This document shows, in pieces, positions 2,400-9,273 of a stretch of 44,443 nucleotides of DNA. The position numbers were made by a program, and so were the translations under genes. The notes beneath the pieces are model-generated. The model made no database searches. It saw only the letters and a program-made list of their open reading frames with translations, and was not told where the DNA came from. Where the stretch lies: the sequence record NC_073073.1. One strand, 5' to 3'. How positions within the stretch are numbered: the stretch's first letter is position 1; every line of letters begins with the position of its first letter. Source of the stretch: Escherichia phage mckay.

Positions 2400-2489
2400 C
2401 CGCTTAGGCGCAACCAAGTAGATTAGCAACCAAGCCGGACGGGGTGGCTTCCAATAACCCCGATACATGTGAAAATGAGGAATTGGAAA

Positions 2490-3272
2490 ATGGCTAAAGT
2501 CAACCTGAAAAATGTGCGCGTATGTTTCCTGAAAATTTGGGAACGTGATACCCCTAAACAGGATGGGCAAAAACCGGCATACCGTGCCGTGATTCTTCTT
2601 GATAAAGAAGATCCGCAGGTGGACAAAGTGGAAGAGGCAGCGCGCGCAGTGCTCACCGACAAGCTGAAGTCCGAGAAGAACGCCGATAAGTGGATGGACC
2701 GCCACTACGCCCAGGATTCGAAGGAATGCGCAGTTCGCGACGGTGACGAGCGCGACGAAGTGACCGAAGAATTCGAAGGCATGTTGTATATCAACGCCAA
2801 ATCGTTCAAACAGCCTATCATTCAAACGTCACTCGGCGAGAAGCAGACTGAACAAGGTCTGACCATCGACGGCGACGAGATTGAAGGCCAGGAGATCTAC
2901 TCCGGTTGTTATTGCAACGTGTCCCTTGATATTTGGGCATGGAACAATACCAACGGCAAGGGTCTCGGGGCTGGCTTGCTGGGTCTGCGATTCCGTGAAG
3001 ACGGCGAAGCCTTCGGAGGTGGCGGGTCTTCTTGCTCCGATGAAGACCTGGACAACGACGACGAAGACGAAGCACCGCGCAAGTCCAAAAAGTCAAAACG
3101 TCGTGATGTCGATGATGTAGATGACAAGCCGCGCAAGTCCAAGAAATCCAAGCGCCGCGATGACGACGACGATGAGGAAGATGAAAAACCTCGCAAACGT
3201 CGTAAGCCACGCGATGACGAAGATGAGGACGACGACGAAGACGAAGCGCCACGTAAACGTCGCCGCCGTTAA
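2490..3272 (+). CDS. DUF2815-type phage ssDNA-binding protein with repetitive charged C-terminal tail
   Basis: Start chosen at ATG 2490 (MAKVNLKNVRVCF..., GAGGA RBS upstream) rather than ORF-track 2469. N-terminal region resembles DUF2815 SSBs that pair with DUF2800; C-terminus is alternating acidic/basic repeats. Confidence 0.6.
   Translation: MAKVNLKNVRVCFLKIWERDTPKQDGQKPAYRAVILLDKEDPQVDKVEEAARAVLTDKLKSEKNADKWMDRHYAQDSKECAVRDGDERDEVTEEFEGMLYINAKSFKQPIIQTSLGEKQTEQGLTIDGDEIEGQEIYSGCYCNVSLDIWAWNNTNGKGLGAGLLGLRFREDGEAFGGGGSSCSDEDLDNDDEDEAPRKSKKSKRRDVDDVDDKPRKSKKSKRRDDDDDEEDEKPRKRRKPRDDEDEDDDEDEAPRKRRRR
3050..3272 (+). repeat. Imperfect in-frame tandem repeats encoding (D/E)n-APRKSKKSKRR blocks
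   Basis: Repeated gaagacgaagc(a/g)ccgcg(c/t)aa(g/a)... units visible by eye; translate to DEDEAPRKSKKSKRRD / DKPRKSKKSKRRD / EKPRKRRKPRD / DEAPRKRRRR. Confidence 0.6.
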
Positions 3273-3291
3273 GGGCAAAGCCCACTATTCA

Positions 3292-3316
3292 AGCCCGCTT
3301 AATGCGGGCTTTTTAA
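3292..3316 (+). terminator. Rho-independent terminator after the SSB gene
   Basis: AGCCCGC-ttaat-GCGGGCT hairpin followed by TTTTT. Confidence 0.6.
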
Positions 3317-3331
3317 TAGGACAATGAAAAA

Positions 3332-3502
3332 ATGCGTATTAAAGCCAGCGAAGTAAAAGTCGGAATGAAAGTATGGTCTAAGCTACTGGGGGAGTATTTC
3401 ACAGTTGCCGAGATTCGCAACAACGGCGAAGAGATTGCCCTGTCTGACGGCATCTTCTCCATGATCGGCAGCGCTGACGCCGTAGTGAGGATAAAGCAAT
3501 GA
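3332..3502 (+). CDS. Hypothetical small protein (56 aa, below the ORF-track cutoff)
   Basis: Hand-translated MRIKASEVKVGMKVWSKLLGEYF...; stop TGA overlaps the polymerase ATG (ATGA at 3499-3502). Confidence 0.4.
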   Translation: MRIKASEVKVGMKVWSKLLGEYFTVAEIRNNGEEIALSDGIFSMIGSADAVVRIKQ

Positions 3503-5790
3503 AAGACTTCGAACGCCTGTTTCTCGATACCGAGACATTTAGCGGGGTGGACCTGAAGAAAGTTGGGGCGTACGCCTACGCAGAGCACCCAACCACCGAG
3601 ATTATGATTTGCACATACGCCATCGACGAGGGCCGCGTGCAGACATGGGATGCCACTGAATCCCCAACAATGCCGCGTGAACTGCGCAAGGCGCTTCGCC
3701 AGGTATCCCGCAAGAAAGCAAAAATCGTGATGGCTAACGGCCTCCTGTTTGACCGCCTGGTTATCCGTGAGAAGTGGGGCATCGACCTGCCGGTAAGCCA
3801 GATCGAAGACACCATGATTATGGCCTTTCGCCACGCGCTGCCCGGTAGCCTAGATATGCAGTGCCAGGTGCTGGGCGTTGACGCAGAGCACGCGAAAGAT
3901 AAGGCAGGCAAGGCGCTGATTAAACGATTCTGTAAGCCCACCCCTAAGACCTACAAAATCCGCCGCTACACACGCGAGACGCACCCCGAAGAATGGGCCA
4001 AATTCTTGCGCTATGCCGCGCTGGATATTGTTGCCATGCGTGAAGTCTACTGGCGCATACCGGACTGGGGTAATACTCAGAAGGAAGATGAAATCCTGCT
4101 CATCGACCAGTTGATTAACGACCGCGGCTTCTACGTTGACGTTGATCTGGCGAACGCCGCGATCAAAGCGGTGCAGGCGCATAAGGAAGAATTGAAGGAA
4201 GAAGCCTGGGAGCGATTTGGTGGTAAACTGACAGGCAATGACTTCCTGCCAATCCTGCGTGATATCGCCCCGGCGTTCACAATCCACAACGCGCAGAAAT
4301 CCACACTTAACGACCTGCTTGAAGACCCGGACTTCCCCGACGAAGGCAAAGCGCTTATCGAAATGCGCCTCGGAGCGTCATCAACGGCATCGACTAAGTA
4401 CAATCCGCTCGTTAACGGCCTATCCGCAGATGGTCGCCGCCGTGGGTGTCTTCAGTATGGCGGCGCAAAGCGCACGCTACGCTGGGCCGGTAAAGGCTTC
4501 CAGCCTCAAAACCTGGCACGCGGCGAGTATAGCGACGACCACGAAGGGAAGATTAAGCGCCGCGAAGGCGAGAGCGACGTCTCGTTTTGGGTCCGGTCGC
4601 ACATGCTCACCAACGGCATCAACTCCCTGTTACGCGGGACCGCACACTGGGCGTATGACATATCGAAGCTGACTGCCTCGACCGTTCGCGGGTGCATTAT
4701 CCCAGCTAAGGGTAAGAAGTTTGTCGTCGCGGACTACTCCAACGTGGAAGGGCGCGGCCTTGCCTGGATCGCTGGCGAGAAAACCGCGCTAATGGTGTTT
4801 AAGGCCGGACGCGATATCTATTGTGAGACCGCCGGTAAGATGTTCGGCCTGGACCCGGACTACATTAAAGCCAACCGCAAGGACTTACGCCAGATCGGTA
4901 AGGCGTGCGAATTGGGACTGGGCTATGGTGGCGGCGTGGCAGCGTTCTTGCAGTTCGCTAAAAACCTGGGCCTCGACCTTTACACTATGGCGGACGTGAT
5001 GAAGGGCACGTTCCCGGATCACATTTGGGCGGCGGCGAAACGCGGCTATGAGTACGCCCGCATTAACGAAGCGAAACGCCCACCGAAGCCTGGCAAGAAG
5101 GACGAGCGACCGACTTACATACTGCCGAAAAACGTATGGCTGACTTGTGACGCCATCAAACGTATGTGGCGCGAGGCTCACCCGAAGACGGTCGCCTTTT
5201 GGGCCGAGCTTGAGGACGCGGTGTTATGTGCAATACGCAATCCTGGCAAAGCATACTGGGCGGGCGCGCACGTTCGCCCGGATGGCAGGAAAGCGCTCAA
5301 AATTGTTCGAACGAAGGCGAAGCACGACCCCACCTTTGACGAGGAGCGCGACGACCCGAACGCCGCGGGGTGGTGGTTGAAAATTGAGTTGCCGTCGGGG
5401 CGCATCATGAGCTACCCCGGCATCGCGCTGTCTGTCACTACCGAGATTGACGAAGACACCGGCAAGAAGCGCACCAGCACACGCATTAAATATCAGGGCG
5501 AGAATCAGACGACGCGCCAGTGGGGATTCCAGTATACCTACGGCGGCAAACTGACGGAGAACATCGTGCAGGCGTTGTGTCGCGATATTCTCGCATGGTC
5601 TATGCCTGGCGTTGAAGCTGCGGGCTATGAAATCGTTCTATCGGTGCATGATGAATTGATCACAGAAGTGCCGGACACCGACGACTACACGACCGAGGAG
5701 CTTTGCGCGCTGATGTGCGACCTGCCTGTATGGGCGAAAGGCTTCCCACTTGCCGCCGAAGGCGATTGTATGTATCGATACCGCAAGTAG
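3499..5790 (+). CDS. DNA polymerase, family A, with 3'-5' exonuclease domain
   Basis: 763 aa; exo motif FLDTETFS; Pol A motif A DYSNVEGR, motif B RQIGKACELGLGYGGG, motif C VHDEL. Confidence 0.9.
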   Translation: MKDFERLFLDTETFSGVDLKKVGAYAYAEHPTTEIMICTYAIDEGRVQTWDATESPTMPRELRKALRQVSRKKAKIVMANGLLFDRLVIREKWGIDLPVSQIEDTMIMAFRHALPGSLDMQCQVLGVDAEHAKDKAGKALIKRFCKPTPKTYKIRRYTRETHPEEWAKFLRYAALDIVAMREVYWRIPDWGNTQKEDEILLIDQLINDRGFYVDVDLANAAIKAVQAHKEELKEEAWERFGGKLTGNDFLPILRDIAPAFTIHNAQKSTLNDLLEDPDFPDEGKALIEMRLGASSTASTKYNPLVNGLSADGRRRGCLQYGGAKRTLRWAGKGFQPQNLARGEYSDDHEGKIKRREGESDVSFWVRSHMLTNGINSLLRGTAHWAYDISKLTASTVRGCIIPAKGKKFVVADYSNVEGRGLAWIAGEKTALMVFKAGRDIYCETAGKMFGLDPDYIKANRKDLRQIGKACELGLGYGGGVAAFLQFAKNLGLDLYTMADVMKGTFPDHIWAAAKRGYEYARINEAKRPPKPGKKDERPTYILPKNVWLTCDAIKRMWREAHPKTVAFWAELEDAVLCAIRNPGKAYWAGAHVRPDGRKALKIVRTKAKHDPTFDEERDDPNAAGWWLKIELPSGRIMSYPGIALSVTTEIDEDTGKKRTSTRIKYQGENQTTRQWGFQYTYGGKLTENIVQALCRDILAWSMPGVEAAGYEIVLSVHDELITEVPDTDDYTTEELCALMCDLPVWAKGFPLAAEGDCMYRYRK

Positions 5791-5857
5791 CGGAAATGTT
5801 GCTTTTAGCGGAAACGTCAGGCAATATTGTCTGGCGTTTTCTTTTTCGGGGGTGTAT

Positions 5858-6460
5858 ATGAAACATTGTGGGCGTTGTAATACGGATAAAGATGGGTCCG
5901 CTTTCAACAAGGGTCAGTCGTGGTGTGCCAAATGCATGGCGGCATATAAGAAAGAGAGACGGGATAAGGAAAGAGGAGCGCCGCCGCGTGTAGTATGGCG
6001 AGAGTATACCGGGGAGATCGTAACATGCCGTACGTGCGGTGAGCGCAAGCGGCTCACGCCGGAAAACTTCCGGCCCGGAAACCAGGCAAGCCAGTCTCAT
6101 ATTCGTAAAGAATGCCGGTCGTGCGCTAATAAGTCTCGCCGTGAGTACAACCACCGGACACCAGAGATCCGCGCTTACTATAAGCTCTTTCAGTACCGTA
6201 AGGCGGACGAAAGGAAGGGGCTAAACACCGACCTCACCACCGAGGACGTGCTACGCCTTACTTCTCTGCCATGCGCTTACTGCGGATCCACCGGCGACAA
6301 TGGCGCGGACCGACTCGACAATGCGGTAGGCCATACGAAAGATAACTGCGTACCGTGCTGCGTAGAGTGCAACATAGCCCGCGGGGACCGGTTTACCCCG
6401 GACGAAATGAGGAAGTTTATTGGGCCGGCCATTGCTGCTGTAAGGAAAAGCCGACAATGA
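5858..6460 (+). CDS. HNH endonuclease with two N-terminal zinc-ribbon modules
   Basis: Start taken at ATG 5858 (MKHCGRC...), in frame with the ORF-track ORF that begins inside the polymerase gene. C-terminal DRLDNAVGHTKDNCVPCCVECNIARGD fits the HNH His-Me finger; two CxxC-(14-25)-CxxC modules upstream. Confidence 0.7.
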   Translation: MKHCGRCNTDKDGSAFNKGQSWCAKCMAAYKKERRDKERGAPPRVVWREYTGEIVTCRTCGERKRLTPENFRPGNQASQSHIRKECRSCANKSRREYNHRTPEIRAYYKLFQYRKADERKGLNTDLTTEDVLRLTSLPCAYCGSTGDNGADRLDNAVGHTKDNCVPCCVECNIARGDRFTPDEMRKFIGPAIAAVRKSRQ

Positions 6461-6735
6461 CACCAGAGGGCAAGGTGCAGAGTCACCTGATGAAGCGGGT
6501 TAAAGAGGTTGGAGGATTCTGCCGAAAACTGGCATGGGAGGGGCGCGCGGGTGCGCCCGACCTGATTATTATCATCAACGGCAAAATAGTGTTTGTCGAA
6601 GTGAAGCGCCCCGGTGGAAAACCGAAGCCGCACCAGGTACGTGAACATGAGCGAATGGCCCGCCGCGGTGCTGACGTTCGCGTTATCGACAACATATCCG
6701 ACTGCGATTTATTGGTTGCTGAATTGGTCGCATAG
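6457..6735 (+). CDS. VRR-NUC domain nuclease
   Basis: Start at ATG 6457 overlapping the HNH stop; GAPDLIIIINGKIVFVEVKRPGGKP...REHE matches the VRR-NUC D...E.K core. Confidence 0.75.
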   Translation: MTPEGKVQSHLMKRVKEVGGFCRKLAWEGRAGAPDLIIIINGKIVFVEVKRPGGKPKPHQVREHERMARRGADVRVIDNISDCDLLVAELVA

Positions 6736-6775
6736 CGGTATAGTGTGCAGGTTGGCACTATCGAGGATTTTAGAA

Positions 6776-6949
6776 ATGATTGAAGAAAAACGTTGTAGTA
6801 ATTGCGGATGCATCAAGCCGCTATCCCAGTTCCACAAGTACACCGGCAAGACTGCGCGAAGTCCAGACGGACATCGGGCCGAGTGCAAGTCGTGCCGCAA
6901 TAAGAAAGAGCGCGAACGGCAGCGCCGCTATCGCGCAGAACAAGAATAA
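6776..6949 (+). CDS. Stand-alone zinc-ribbon protein (57 aa), paralogous to the HNH N-terminal modules
   Basis: Start at ATG 6776 (MIEEKRCSNCGC...); CxxC-x25-CxxC followed by a K/R-rich tail, same pattern as the HNH modules. Confidence 0.45.
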   Translation: MIEEKRCSNCGCIKPLSQFHKYTGKTARSPDGHRAECKSCRNKKERERQRRYRAEQE

Positions 6950-6956
6950 TCAATAC

Positions 6957-6980
6957 GGCGGGCTTGTCCCGCCATTTTTA
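6957..6980 (+). terminator. Rho-independent terminator-like hairpin
   Basis: GGCGGG-cttgt-CCCGCC stem followed by ATTTTTA. Confidence 0.5.
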
Positions 6981-6987
6981 GAGAGAC

Positions 6988-7212
6988 ATGACGATGAAAG
7001 AACACTACCGACTCACCAAGCTGGGTGAATGTAAACCGGGCGATCGCGTGTGGTTTATCGCGGGCATGAATTACCCGCTGCCGTTGACGGTGTGCTGGCA
7101 AAAATTTAAGAGCTTCCGGGCTACCGGTGTGCACGTTGGGCACGCCACCAACTACGACGCCACAAAGAGGAACTGGGATAGTGAAACTGAAGTCTGGAAA
7201 AAGGCGGAATAA
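6988..7212 (+). CDS. Hypothetical protein (74 aa)
   Basis: ORF between terminator and helicase gene; alternative start at 6994. Confidence 0.5.
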   Translation: MTMKEHYRLTKLGECKPGDRVWFIAGMNYPLPLTVCWQKFKSFRATGVHVGHATNYDATKRNWDSETEVWKKAE

Positions 7213-7216
7213 AGAG

Positions 7217-8641
7217 ATGGCACGATTCCGACGCCGCGAATATCAGAAGTTGATTACCGCGTTCATCCTCAAGCATAAGCGATGTAATATCTGGGCGACA
7301 ATGGGGTCGGGTAAAACCGGCGCGACAATGTGGGCGCTGAATAAAATGTTCCAGACGGGCATCCTGTCCCACCAGGAGGACCGCGTACTGGTTCTGGCCC
7401 CGCTGCGCGTTGCATCCGGCACCTGGCCCCCGGAGCAGGAGAAATGGCGGTTCTCATCCCTGCTGGTCGTAGACGGCACTGGACCAGAGAAGGACCGCAT
7501 AGCCGCGCTGGAGAGTAACGCTAACGTGGTTTGTGTTAACTACGATGTGGTTGAGTGGCTGGTCGACTATTACGGCGATGCGTGGCCCTTTACGGTCGTT
7601 GTTGCCGATGAATCGACTAAGCTGAAAGGCTATCGTAGCAAGCAGGGGAGCAAGCGCGCCCGCGCACTGGCCGCGATTGCACATAAACACGTCAAGCGAT
7701 GGATTAACCTTACCGGCACACCAGCGCCAAACGGGCTAAAAGACTTATGGGGTCAGACGTGGTTTGTCGACGGTGGCGAACGCCTCGGCAGTAGCTATAA
7801 GGCATTTACCGACCGCTGGTTTATTAGCAAGCCTGTTAAGCCTGGCAGCTTCACTATGCAGATCGCCCCGCTCAAGAACTCCGAGAAAGAAATACAACAA
7901 CGCCTGTCAGACGTATCCCTTACTGTTGACGCGGCTGAATACTTCGGGTGCGACAAGCCAATATATACGCCGGTTGTTGTGGACCTACCGAAGAAAGCCC
8001 GTAAGATTTACGACCAGTTTGAAAGCGAGCTATTTGCCGAACTGGAAAGCGGAACAGTGGAAGCGGCGAACGCCGCGGCGAAGACAATTAAGTGCCTTCA
8101 GCTTGCTTCCGGCGCGGTGTATAAGGTGGACGAAGACGGCGAACGGACCGACGAGTGGGTGAAGATTCACGACGCGAAGCTGGACGCGCTGGAAAGTATC
8201 GTGGAGGAGTTGAACGGAGCGCCGTTGCTCGTTGCGTACCAATACAAACATGACCTGGCACGTCTCAAGAAGAAATTTCCGCACGGCGTTGCGCTGGGTA
8301 AAGGTAAGCAGGGCAATAAGGATATGGAAGCGTGGAACAGAGGCGAGATCCCCATCATGTTTGCGCACCCGGCATCGGCGGGCCACGGCCTTAACTTGCA
8401 GGACGGCGGTCATCACCTGGCAATCTTCTCCGATACCTGGAACTTTGAGCACTTTTCGCAGATCGTTGAACGTATCGGGCCGGTTCGCCAGATGCAAGCA
8501 GGACACCCCCGTCCGGTATTCGTCTACATTATCCAGGCGCGCGGAACACTGGACGAACTGGTCGCCGAGCGTCGCGACAGTAAGCGGGATATTCAGGACG
8601 ACTTGATGGAATACATGAAAGCTAAAAAGGCGCGCAAATGA
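7217..8641 (+). CDS. SNF2-family (superfamily 2) DNA helicase
   Basis: Start at ATG 7217 (MARFRRREYQ); Walker A ATMGSGKTGA, DExx-type VVADESTKLK, C-terminal helicase region. Confidence 0.8.
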   Translation: MARFRRREYQKLITAFILKHKRCNIWATMGSGKTGATMWALNKMFQTGILSHQEDRVLVLAPLRVASGTWPPEQEKWRFSSLLVVDGTGPEKDRIAALESNANVVCVNYDVVEWLVDYYGDAWPFTVVVADESTKLKGYRSKQGSKRARALAAIAHKHVKRWINLTGTPAPNGLKDLWGQTWFVDGGERLGSSYKAFTDRWFISKPVKPGSFTMQIAPLKNSEKEIQQRLSDVSLTVDAAEYFGCDKPIYTPVVVDLPKKARKIYDQFESELFAELESGTVEAANAAAKTIKCLQLASGAVYKVDEDGERTDEWVKIHDAKLDALESIVEELNGAPLLVAYQYKHDLARLKKKFPHGVALGKGKQGNKDMEAWNRGEIPIMFAHPASAGHGLNLQDGGHHLAIFSDTWNFEHFSQIVERIGPVRQMQAGHPRPVFVYIIQARGTLDELVAERRDSKRDIQDDLMEYMKAKKARK

Positions 8642-9273
8642 TAATCTGGTCATTGTTTGACGGCAGCGGCTTGATGATTGAGCGTGCTGCCGAGATGGGG
8701 CATAAGTGCTACTGTTTTAACTACTCCGAAGCCGATCACGGGTCGTACCTTGACTACCGGATTTATGGTCGCGGAATCCGGTATCGCAATGAGTTTATCG
8801 ATCTGGACTTTGTAGACCGTGCGATGAATGGCGATTTCGGTACGCCGGATATCATCTATGCGTTCCCTCCGTGTACGGATCTGGCAGTTAGCGGCGCGCC
8901 AGCTTTCCCGCGCAAGCGTGCAAAAGACCCCGCCTTTCAGCTTAAGGCGGTGCGCACCGCGAAGATCGCCGCTTACCTGGGTGACTTCTTCGAAGTGCCA
9001 TATATGATTGAGAATCCGCGCAGTGTGCTTTCCACCCAGTGGCGTAAGCCGGACCACTCATTCGACCCGTGGGAGTATGGGGGATATCTGCCGGAGGATG
9101 ACGTACACCCGCTCTTCCCGGAATACATCAACGCCCGCGATTCATATCCGAAGCTGACCTGCTTATGGACCGGCAACGGCTTCCGTATGCCAGAGAAGAA
9201 ACCTGTTTTCGTTGAAAAGGGTACTCTAAGCAGTATAGTCGCCTCGGAGGCAAATCAGCCCGCACAAAATTAA
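8638..9273 (+). CDS. Compact cytosine-C5 methyltransferase-like protein (211 aa)
   Basis: SLFDGSG (motif I-like), FPPCTDLAVSG (PC motif IV-like) and MIENPRS (ENV motif VI-like), but too short to hold a normal target-recognition domain; start overlaps the helicase stop. Confidence 0.45.
   Translation: MIIWSLFDGSGLMIERAAEMGHKCYCFNYSEADHGSYLDYRIYGRGIRYRNEFIDLDFVDRAMNGDFGTPDIIYAFPPCTDLAVSGAPAFPRKRAKDPAFQLKAVRTAKIAAYLGDFFEVPYMIENPRSVLSTQWRKPDHSFDPWEYGGYLPEDDVHPLFPEYINARDSYPKLTCLWTGNGFRMPEKKPVFVEKGTLSSIVASEANQPAQN

Follow-up and report, generated by a model that had tools for sequence, protein, structure and literature searches.

What kind of element separates the DNA polymerase and helicase genes of Escherichia phage mckay? 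The window that we analyzed is the whole 44,443-nucleotide stretch of sequence record NC_073073.1. An initial annotation of it had singled out positions 5858 to 6949, where a putative HNH endonuclease is followed, two genes downstream, by a protein of 57 residues. The cluster was read as a mobile homing cassette, and the small protein as a competitor for the nuclease target site (immunity or regulation) or as a homing-endonuclease remnant. Our results probably call for a different description, that of two separate things with one zinc module in common: a PacI-like nuclease cassette, optional and probably homing, and an independent small protein found throughout the genus. The features on which the argument turns are as follows.

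3499 to 5790, plus strand: family-A DNA polymerase gene (pol), from open reading frame (ORF) listing and profile searches.
5766 to 5790, plus strand: last eight pol codons and stop, with the cassette-linked haplotype GAT TGY ATG TAT CGM TAC CGC AAG TAG.
5791 to 6456, plus strand: optional cassette of 666 bp, comprising a 5′ leader with a hairpin, a ribosome binding site and the nuclease ORF, which fills the gap from the pol stop to the VRR-NUC start.
5810 to 5846, plus strand: hairpin resembling an intrinsic terminator (14-bp stem, 4-nt loop and T-run), inside the cassette and upstream of the nuclease ribosome binding site, from a terminator scan.
5858 to 6460, plus strand: PacI-like beta-beta-alpha-metal (variant HNH) endonuclease of 200 aa, with zinc module 1 at residues 1-40, zinc module 2 at 52-103, and a helical linker and nuclease core at 104-200.
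6308 to 6373, plus strand: predicted catalytic core, D151 (6308-6310), R152, H159 (6332-6334) and N172 (6371-6373), from phmmer alignment with PacI.
6457 to 6735, plus strand: VRR-NUC nuclease of 92 aa, a core gene outside the cassette (Pfam VRR_NUC, 6.5e-06; phrog_93, 5.4e-31).
6776 to 6949, plus strand: stand-alone zinc-module protein of 57 aa, a core Dhillonvirus gene.

By its sequence the phage is a member of Dhillonvirus: over a stretch of about 3 kb around the locus it shares 91–94% identity with Sodalis phage SO-1, with Escherichia phages Envy, Gluttony and SECphi18, and with about 150 further Dhillonvirus records; for SO-1 and Envy the figure is about 94%. Comparison with relatives that lack the insertion, which the initial annotation had proposed as a means of defining the homing site, places the insertion site at the junction of the pol stop and the VRR-NUC start. 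In the window and 6 other sampled loci, an insert of 654–666 bp lies precisely between the pol stop and the VRR-NUC ATG (7 of 7 carriers). When the junction is empty, as in Sponge, EP23 and others (6 of the 19 sampled loci), the pol TAA overlaps the VRR-NUC ATG to give TAATG. The nuclease cassette is carried by 24–26 of about 159 related phage records, and VRR-NUC is present in all 19 sampled Dhillonvirus loci and in 80 more viral loci. The claim of a mobile cassette between the polymerase and helicase genes therefore has to be narrowed. The nuclease gene is sporadic, sits at a precise site with short linked flanks and occurs in other contexts elsewhere, as expected of a mobile gene; the cluster as a whole is not a cassette, as relatives whose site is empty still have VRR-NUC and the small gene.

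Other cargo occupies the same slot. An unrelated ORF of 192 nt (63 aa) replaces the cassette in 5 sampled loci, including that of PaulFeyerabend, and in 55 of the roughly 159 records. HK578 has a 333-nt ORF with an HExxH motif (2 of the roughly 159 records), homologues of which fill the slot in more distant phages, and Salmonella-phage-like contigs carry a different nuclease gene there, of the HNH_3 family. The pol/VRR-NUC junction (5790/6457 in the window) is thus an accessory-gene hotspot that may be empty or hold a PacI-like nuclease, the 63-aa ORF, an HExxH ORF (110–133 aa) or HNH_3. Slot contents were located at 1796-1987 of sampled locus L002, 2168-2500 of L012, 2155-2517 of L020, 1351-1866 and 2110-2511 of L023, and 3206-3694 of L024.

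The cassette brings its own leader. The RNA fold of positions 5788-5875 (88 nt) has a free energy of -26.9 kcal/mol (z=-2.9), and the only variation in the hairpin stem among 8 carrier loci consists of changes from C-G to U-G and from A-U to G-U, which keep the pairing. The hairpin is followed by a nuclease ribosome binding site, GGGGG, and at the other end the nuclease stop overlaps the VRR-NUC start (ATGA). A repeat search of the locus returned only short two-copy matches. One is a 12-nt direct repeat, TAGCGGAAA[T/C]GT, at the left edge of the cassette (5788-5799 and 5806-5817), the first copy of which spans the pol stop codon; another is an identical stretch of 11 nt shared by the KKE codons of module 1 and those of the small gene. 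We treat these short repeats as chance or unexplained.

A recombinant form of the cassette is found in phage bob (NC_073072; positions 213-818 of its sampled locus, window 5858-6308), which is 100% identical to the window in nucleotide sequence over the first 518 nt of the cassette. There, a 7-nt microhomology (GGCGCGG) marks the join between residues 1-150 of the nuclease and the 3′ part of the 63-aa ORF, so that the chimera keeps both zinc modules and has lost the whole catalytic core.

What enzyme does the cassette encode? The label of HNH finger in the initial annotation was right as to a nuclease core and needs amendment as to its active site, which lacks the canonical first histidine and is instead a D-R...H...N variant. 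[quoted passage not shown] A phmmer search of sequences in the PDB gave a weak match to PacI over residues 90-133, with 23% identity, in which the nuclease motif GADRLDNAVGHTKDN..C..CN aligns with GVDRSDSFEGYSPQN..C..CN of PacI. Residues D151, R152, H159 and N172 fall on PacI D92, R93, Y100 and N113, and the N-terminal CxxC...CxxC of PacI aligns with nuclease module 1. Papers on PacI describe a catalytic site of H42-R93-Y100-N113 in which the arginine replaces the canonical histidine (PMC3765158), Asp and Asn as metal ligands with Tyr as general base (PMC4081073), and N113 as the metal-binding asparagine (PMC3996161). The nuclease thus shows the PacI-type pattern (D-R...Y...N, with Arg for His and an aromatic residue or His as base on strand 2) and also has N-terminal Cys4 modules ahead of the core, two in this case. 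Its predicted catalytic core is bracketed by a third zinc site within the nuclease domain (C139xxC142...C168xxC171). Across 12 nuclease homologues, C139xxC142 and C168xxC171-N172 are invariant, as are D151, R152 and N172, and position 159 is His or Tyr. With a pN/pS (ratio of nonsynonymous to synonymous polymorphism) of 0.11, the ORF is under purifying selection. By analogy with PacI, we infer an active PacI-type enzyme with His159 as the base.

The resemblance has limits. PacI (PDB 3LDY and 3M7K) has one N-terminal module whereas the window nuclease has two; Tyr100 is represented by His159; the identity is 23%; and PacI is a bacterial restriction-modification enzyme, whereas the window nuclease belongs to a sporadic phage cassette with no cognate or cassette-linked methyltransferase. 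Family models were less informative. The nuclease falls in phrog_1035, labelled 'endonuclease VII' (3.7e-39), and the small protein matches PHROG families with endonuclease VII and Lar labels, yet no Pfam family (HNH, HNH_3-5, Endonuclease_7) or NCBIfam reached E<=1 for the nuclease, and Pfam, NCBIfam and PADLOC scans of both proteins yielded nothing usable. For the small protein, Lar_restr_allev gave no Pfam match at E<=1 despite the Lar-like label of phrog_5558, and the weak Pfam matches that it did give were DUF5637, DUF6510 (the best, E 0.081) and Zn_ribbon_RPB9. T4 endonuclease VII (PF02945) belongs to the same broad beta-beta-alpha-metal superfamily as the window nuclease, which lacks catalytic histidines of the endonuclease VII type. 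Both the 'endonuclease VII' and the Lar labels appear to be inherited annotation.

We then asked whether the zinc modules are copies of one another, as the initial annotation had proposed. Both ORFs and all three CxxC...CxxC modules are present as described. Module 1 has the form C4xxC7...C23xxC26, with 15 residues between the pairs, and module 2 the form C57xxC60...C85xxC88, with 24; in the 57-aa protein, C7xxC10...C37xxC40 is followed by a basic tail (Lys or Arg at 16 of 57 residues). By BLASTP the small protein matches module 2 with 40% identity over 45 aa (E=0.001). Because cysteines dominate the scores of such alignments, Smith-Waterman scores were compared with those of shuffles in which every Cys was held in place. 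On this test the small protein resembles module 2 (p=0.002) and, marginally, module 1 (p=0.03), and modules 1 and 2 do not resemble each other significantly in pairwise comparison (p=0.87). A hidden Markov model (HMM) made from homologues of the small protein alone, with no window sequence included, was more sensitive. Against a control of 2000 Cys-fixed shuffles, it scored the small protein at 67 bits (reached by 0 of 2000 shuffles), module 2 at 24.2 bits (0 of 2000) and module 1 at 13.9 bits (one shuffle in 2000); for the zinc site inside the nuclease domain it gave 0 bits. In agreement, the small protein matches positions 62-109 of phrog_1035 at 3.5e-10. From the Cys-fixed shuffles and the profile scores, we conclude that the small protein, module 1 and module 2 are copies of one module family. 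Alignment of the three therefore bears out the proposed similarity by profile and, for the small protein and module 2, pairwise as well.

The conserved signature of the module is K-x-C-x2-C-x3-KPL-x2-F ... DG-[HYF]-R-x2-C-K-x-C, followed by a basic helix. In AlphaFold models of the two proteins (predicted local distance difference test scores of 85.7 and 87.4), each module consists of a few short strands and a helix that starts at the second CxxC. The name zinc ribbon is thus to be corrected, although the modules themselves stand; we take the arrangement to be a treble-clef rather than a classical zinc ribbon.

The module extends far beyond these phages. Word-based searches gave few relatives, and the size of the family became apparent only with a full HMMER scan, in which a profile of the stand-alone proteins was searched against 1.84 billion cluster representatives. 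Matches at E<=1e-3 were found in 69,096 representatives, the top ones with 4–12 tandem copies. Pfam families in the 100 best module proteins were Stc1 (60), DUF6510 (27), HNH (12), HNH_5 (11) and Endonuclease_7 (4), and the C-terminal half of the Stc1 profile is equivalent to one module. The multi-copy members match the Stc1 domain (PF12898; S. pombe 2LUY) and DUF6510, whereas the window proteins reach no Pfam threshold; Stc1, unlike the module proteins of the window, is eukaryotic. Among predicted viral structures, the small protein matches modules in many proteins annotated as HNH, endonuclease VII or other endonucleases, in phages and giant viruses. Given the nucleases to which the module is fused or with which it co-occurs, these structural matches and the pattern described by Xu and Gupta (below), we regard it as a common nuclease-associated unit that most likely binds nucleic acid. 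The metagenomic proteins listed as P0054-P0203, some of which have 4–12 module copies, returned only unnamed metagenomic entries on cluster look-up, and one module protein of 2046 aa also contains ResIII/DEAD helicase and HEAT-repeat regions.

If the cassette moves by homing, its flanks should carry a record of the process. We compared 7 carrier with 11 non-carrier loci, a small sample whose members are not phylogenetically independent. In the last 1200 nt of pol, 11 sites separate the two groups strongly, 8 of them in the final 25 nt and 3 about 90–100 nt upstream of the stop. Downstream, 3 separating sites lie at VRR-NUC nt 41-51 and the next 1.7 kb has essentially none; the remaining 2.8 kb or so of compared sequence contains two isolated ones. 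Linkage to the cassette is thus confined to a flank of about 25–110 nt on either side. Carriers end pol with TAT CGM TAC CGC AAG TAG, as opposed to TAC AGG TAC AGG AAR TAA in most non-carriers; the differences are synonymous save for I/V to C at one codon, and all 7 carriers stop with TAG and every non-carrier with TAA. The pattern looks like that of short co-conversion tracts or target-site immunity polymorphisms, and the carrier pol haplotype is a candidate for a recoded target site or a co-conversion tract. The nuclease has homologues with 35–48% identity in other settings. In Bas74 the gene comes after pol, in a Webervirus it is surrounded by small ORFs, and in a Murrayvirus it lies immediately upstream of the portal gene.

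Free-standing homing genes of phages, such as mobE and the seg genes of T4, and intronless homing offer the closest parallel (PMC2790892, PMC2988022 and PMC10448857). They too are stand-alone nuclease ORFs between conserved genes, sporadic in close relatives, with short linked flanking polymorphism and degenerate derivatives. The window nuclease differs from the T4 enzymes in its PacI-type variant motif and in the Cys4 modules of its DNA-binding part, and its homing is deduced from sequence. Its sporadic presence at a fixed, precise site between conserved genes and the linked polymorphism of its flanks are nonetheless those of a homing gene, and we consider it most likely to be a free-standing homing endonuclease gene. 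The enzyme would then add a member to the PacI-like branch of the HNH enzymes, in a role that is familiar.

Several points weigh against this interpretation. In addition to the size and non-independence of the sample, EP23 has a carrier-type pol end yet an empty slot, and two other sampled loci (L011 and L012) have mosaic pol ends; because of these exceptions, the flank haplotype, though linked to the cassette, cannot be called exclusive to it. The same pattern could arise from ordinary recombination at a mosaic boundary, with no active homing enzyme. A terminator immediately 5′ of core genes is awkward unless read-through is substantial. Catalytic competence rests on the analogy with PacI, since no Pfam HNH or Endonuclease_7 model detects the nuclease. 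As for DNA binding by the modules, the best sequence match of the module profile to a solved structure is the S. pombe Stc1 tandem zinc finger (2luy_A, E 0.0012), and the Stc1 domain is an adaptor that mediates protein-protein contacts.

The first alternative to homing, which we judge unlikely although it is among the strongest of the competing accounts, takes the 200-aa protein to be an accessory nuclease that comes and goes by ordinary recombination, with a task such as restriction-like exclusion, junction resolution or the breakdown of DNA from the host or a competitor. The solved structure nearest to it is indeed a restriction enzyme, its PHROG label is 'endonuclease VII', and the slot also holds non-nuclease cargo (the 63-aa and HExxH ORFs) and is therefore a general hotspot for accessory genes. 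Against this, there is no cognate methyltransferase, as the Dcm-like gene at 8638-9273 is also present in non-carriers; Endonuclease_7 of Pfam gives no match; and the very short linked flanks, together with the different HNH genes in the same slot, fit homing better. Pairing of the nuclease with the Dcm-like methyltransferase in a restriction-modification system was considered separately and rejected, the methyltransferase being a core gene found in non-carriers.

The small protein has a quite different distribution. In tblastn searches it was found at >=90% identity in about 156 records, essentially every Dhillonvirus, as opposed to 26 with the nuclease, and about 130 records that lack the nuclease carry the gene at that level. 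Its features are C7, C10, C37 and C40, conserved KPL..F and DG[HY]R motifs and a basic C-terminal helix at 38-56, and its Shine-Dalgarno sequence, GAGGA, lies at 6763-6767. A sigma-70-like site at 6752-6780 was not counted as a promoter of the gene, as it overlaps the start codon. In 18 sampled loci the small gene has a pN/pS of 0.05, as low as that of the helicase gene. By codon position, the variable sites are 5 at the first, 2 at the second and 29 at the third, and the other two frames give a ratio above 2. From the pN/pS and the codon-position pattern we conclude that the gene is translated and under selection, so that the doubt whether this small ORF is expressed at all is answered as far as sequence can tell. 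The protein of the window is identical to copies in nuclease-free phages, and the gene contains only one site that is strongly associated with carriers. Orthologues follow VRR-NUC, often as overlapping ORFs, in Eiauvirus, a Guernseyvirinae phage and several metagenomic lineages that do not have this nuclease. Nor is the small protein particularly close to its neighbor: it matches the two nuclease modules at 37% and 33%, and modules of unrelated metagenomic proteins at 34–44%. Because the small gene is independent of the nuclease and no closer to its modules than to others, both the immunity or regulator idea and the idea of a single cassette are unsupported. The protein is most likely a nucleic-acid-binding factor of the replication/recombination block; possible roles are a DNA-binding accessory of that block, a domesticated homing-endonuclease module or an Stc1-like protein adaptor.

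Could it descend from an ancient homing endonuclease whose nuclease domain was lost here, what was left then becoming fixed in a function for the phage? We regard this as improbable, to about the same degree as the accessory-nuclease account. The module occurs overwhelmingly with nucleases; phage bob demonstrates that loss of the core with retention of the zinc modules happens at this locus; in Edwardsiella phage eiAU a canonical HNH gene stands directly behind the small ORF; and outside the genus the small gene is patchy, with none near VRR-NUC in about 52 of the 80 wider loci. The proposal concerns origin, however, and not present function; no intermediate form was found, and strong purifying selection means that the gene is not decaying today. 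Of the remnant claim in the initial annotation, then, a deep evolutionary sense is conceivable, that of a domesticated nuclease-targeting module, and the narrower sense, a remnant of this nuclease gene, is not. The orthologue in eiAU (3062-3764 of sampled locus L019, 2435-3137 of L031) is unannotated, and the gene behind it, gp20, overlaps its 3′ end; the arrangement may be a side-by-side pair of zinc protein and HNH enzyme or another insertion.

Less likely again is that the minimal VRR-NUC of 92 aa has the small protein as a trans-acting DNA-targeting subunit. All lineages with the small gene have it immediately 3′ of VRR-NUC; overlap of the two ORFs in four sampled loci (L022, L023, L024 and L025) and in Otaku suggests translational coupling; and the module is fused to nucleases in other proteins. 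On the other hand, about 52 of 80 related VRR-NUC loci have no module within 3 kb, with the order pol-VRR-NUC-64aa-helicase in L050 and L070, for example; no VRR_NUC fusion is among the families listed for the 100 multi-module proteins; and adjacency is explained by shared ancestry of gene order. Given those 52 or so loci, the small protein is not an obligatory partner of VRR-NUC, and that candidate role was downgraded. We rate as equally doubtful a broader speculation in which the module of about 50 aa (Cys4 knuckle, KPL..F, DG.R and basic helix) would be a modular nucleic-acid-recognition unit, used in arrays of up to 12 copies on HNH, endonuclease VII and helicase proteins of viruses and bacteria in the manner of zinc-finger arrays, and the stand-alone protein a trans factor that directs VRR-NUC, the SNF2 helicase or pol to specific DNA.

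Xu and Gupta (2013) reported on HNH nickases that contain a zinc ribbon and have stand-alone zinc-ribbon proteins in their vicinity, to which they assigned no definite function (PMC3592412). The systems are alike in having an extra zinc-binding domain together with HNH in a phage nuclease and a small zinc-ribbon protein encoded close to it, and differ in that those enzymes have a canonical H-N-H and lie beside cos and terminase genes, whereas in the window VRR-NUC stands between the small gene and the nuclease, and the small gene persists without the nuclease. Very improbable, finally, is the claim that the 57-aa protein is a paralogue of the DNA-binding module of the nuclease that occupies its target site or binds the enzyme itself to give immunity or regulation: the common module and the proposal, as a proposal only, that stand-alone zinc-ribbon proteins beside phage HNH nickases are regulators or specificity subunits (PMC3592412) speak for it, and against it stand some 130 nuclease-free records with the gene, identity of the protein in carriers and non-carriers, the single carrier-associated site, retention in other genera without the nuclease and the lack of any specific similarity to the neighboring modules.

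On the preferred reading, that of a homing nuclease cassette beside an independent small protein, we envisage the following course of events. The two N-terminal Cys4 modules, each with a basic helix behind it, would position the nuclease on DNA, and the core would cut with one metal ion held by D151 and N172. H159, a Tyr in PacI and in many homologues, would act as the general base in place of the canonical HNH histidine, a position occupied here by R152. In a mixed infection the nuclease may cut the cassette-free genome at the pol/VRR-NUC junction or close to it; the carrier genome would then serve as template for a repair that copies in the cassette with some tens of flanking bases. Nuclease expression may be kept low by the terminator-like hairpin upstream, and the ATGA overlap would restore the translational coupling to VRR-NUC that insertion of the cassette breaks. 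The small protein would be a single copy of a widespread module, possibly a nuclease-targeting module domesticated long ago.

Gene order in the rest of the locus was derived from ORF listing and profile searches, and the following features complete it.

6957 to 6978, plus strand: GC-rich hairpin and T-run directly 3′ of the small gene, terminator-like on the minus strand too, from the terminator scan.
6988 to 7212: protein of 74 aa (phrog_9291), between the small zinc gene and the helicase gene.
7217 to 8641: SNF2-type helicase.
8638 to 9273: Dcm-like methyltransferase.

An Rfam scan of 5500-7400 gave only one sub-threshold snoRNA match, attributable to chance. Upstream of pol, the protein encoded at 2469-3272 has a long repetitive C-terminal tail in which acidic runs alternate with basic repeats resembling PRKSKKSKRR; it is positionally equivalent to the single-stranded DNA-binding gene (Pfam Enc34_ssDNA-bd) of related contigs. 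Phage Teewinot has a truncated or rearranged version of the 74-aa gene that separates the small zinc protein from the helicase (2979-3136 of the sampled locus), and an annotated HNH gene lies past its helicase with a 61-aa ORF in between; in other phages the helicase is followed directly by the methyltransferase. Two database entries are odd. GenBank MG065648, labelled Campylobacter phage A144, is 92% identical to Dhillonvirus DNA across the query, and PQ843332 (P-GXEC-L2P5, 88.6 kb) is about twice the usual genome length; mislabelling or assembly artefact is likely. Many GenBank records have a wrong-frame ORF over the small gene (window 6776-7212), as in the 143-aa coding sequence of Sponge, and the gene has been named kilA anti-repressor, meiotic chromosome segregation protein, Lar-like restriction alleviation protein and HNH endonuclease. 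The second of these names is accounted for by the resemblance of the module to the Stc1 zinc finger.

Taken together, our results clarify a region whose annotation is inconsistent across more than 150 public phage genomes, in which the nuclease is variously named endonuclease VII, restriction endonuclease or hypothetical protein. The nuclease and the small protein appear to be an ordinary pair of genes and not a nuclease/immunity system, and both polymorphism of homing endonucleases and the attachment of zinc modules to nucleases are already well known in kind. The module belongs to a very large zinc-module family for which no dedicated curated model exists. For tests of homing the locus is a ready-made natural system: the coliphage genus is well sampled and included in the BASEL collection, and an empty site, three alternative cargos and a nuclease-dead recombinant are available as alleles. 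The comparison further suggests that the active site of PacI, with Arg for His and Tyr or His as the base, is not a one-off and belongs to a wider family of phage nucleases.

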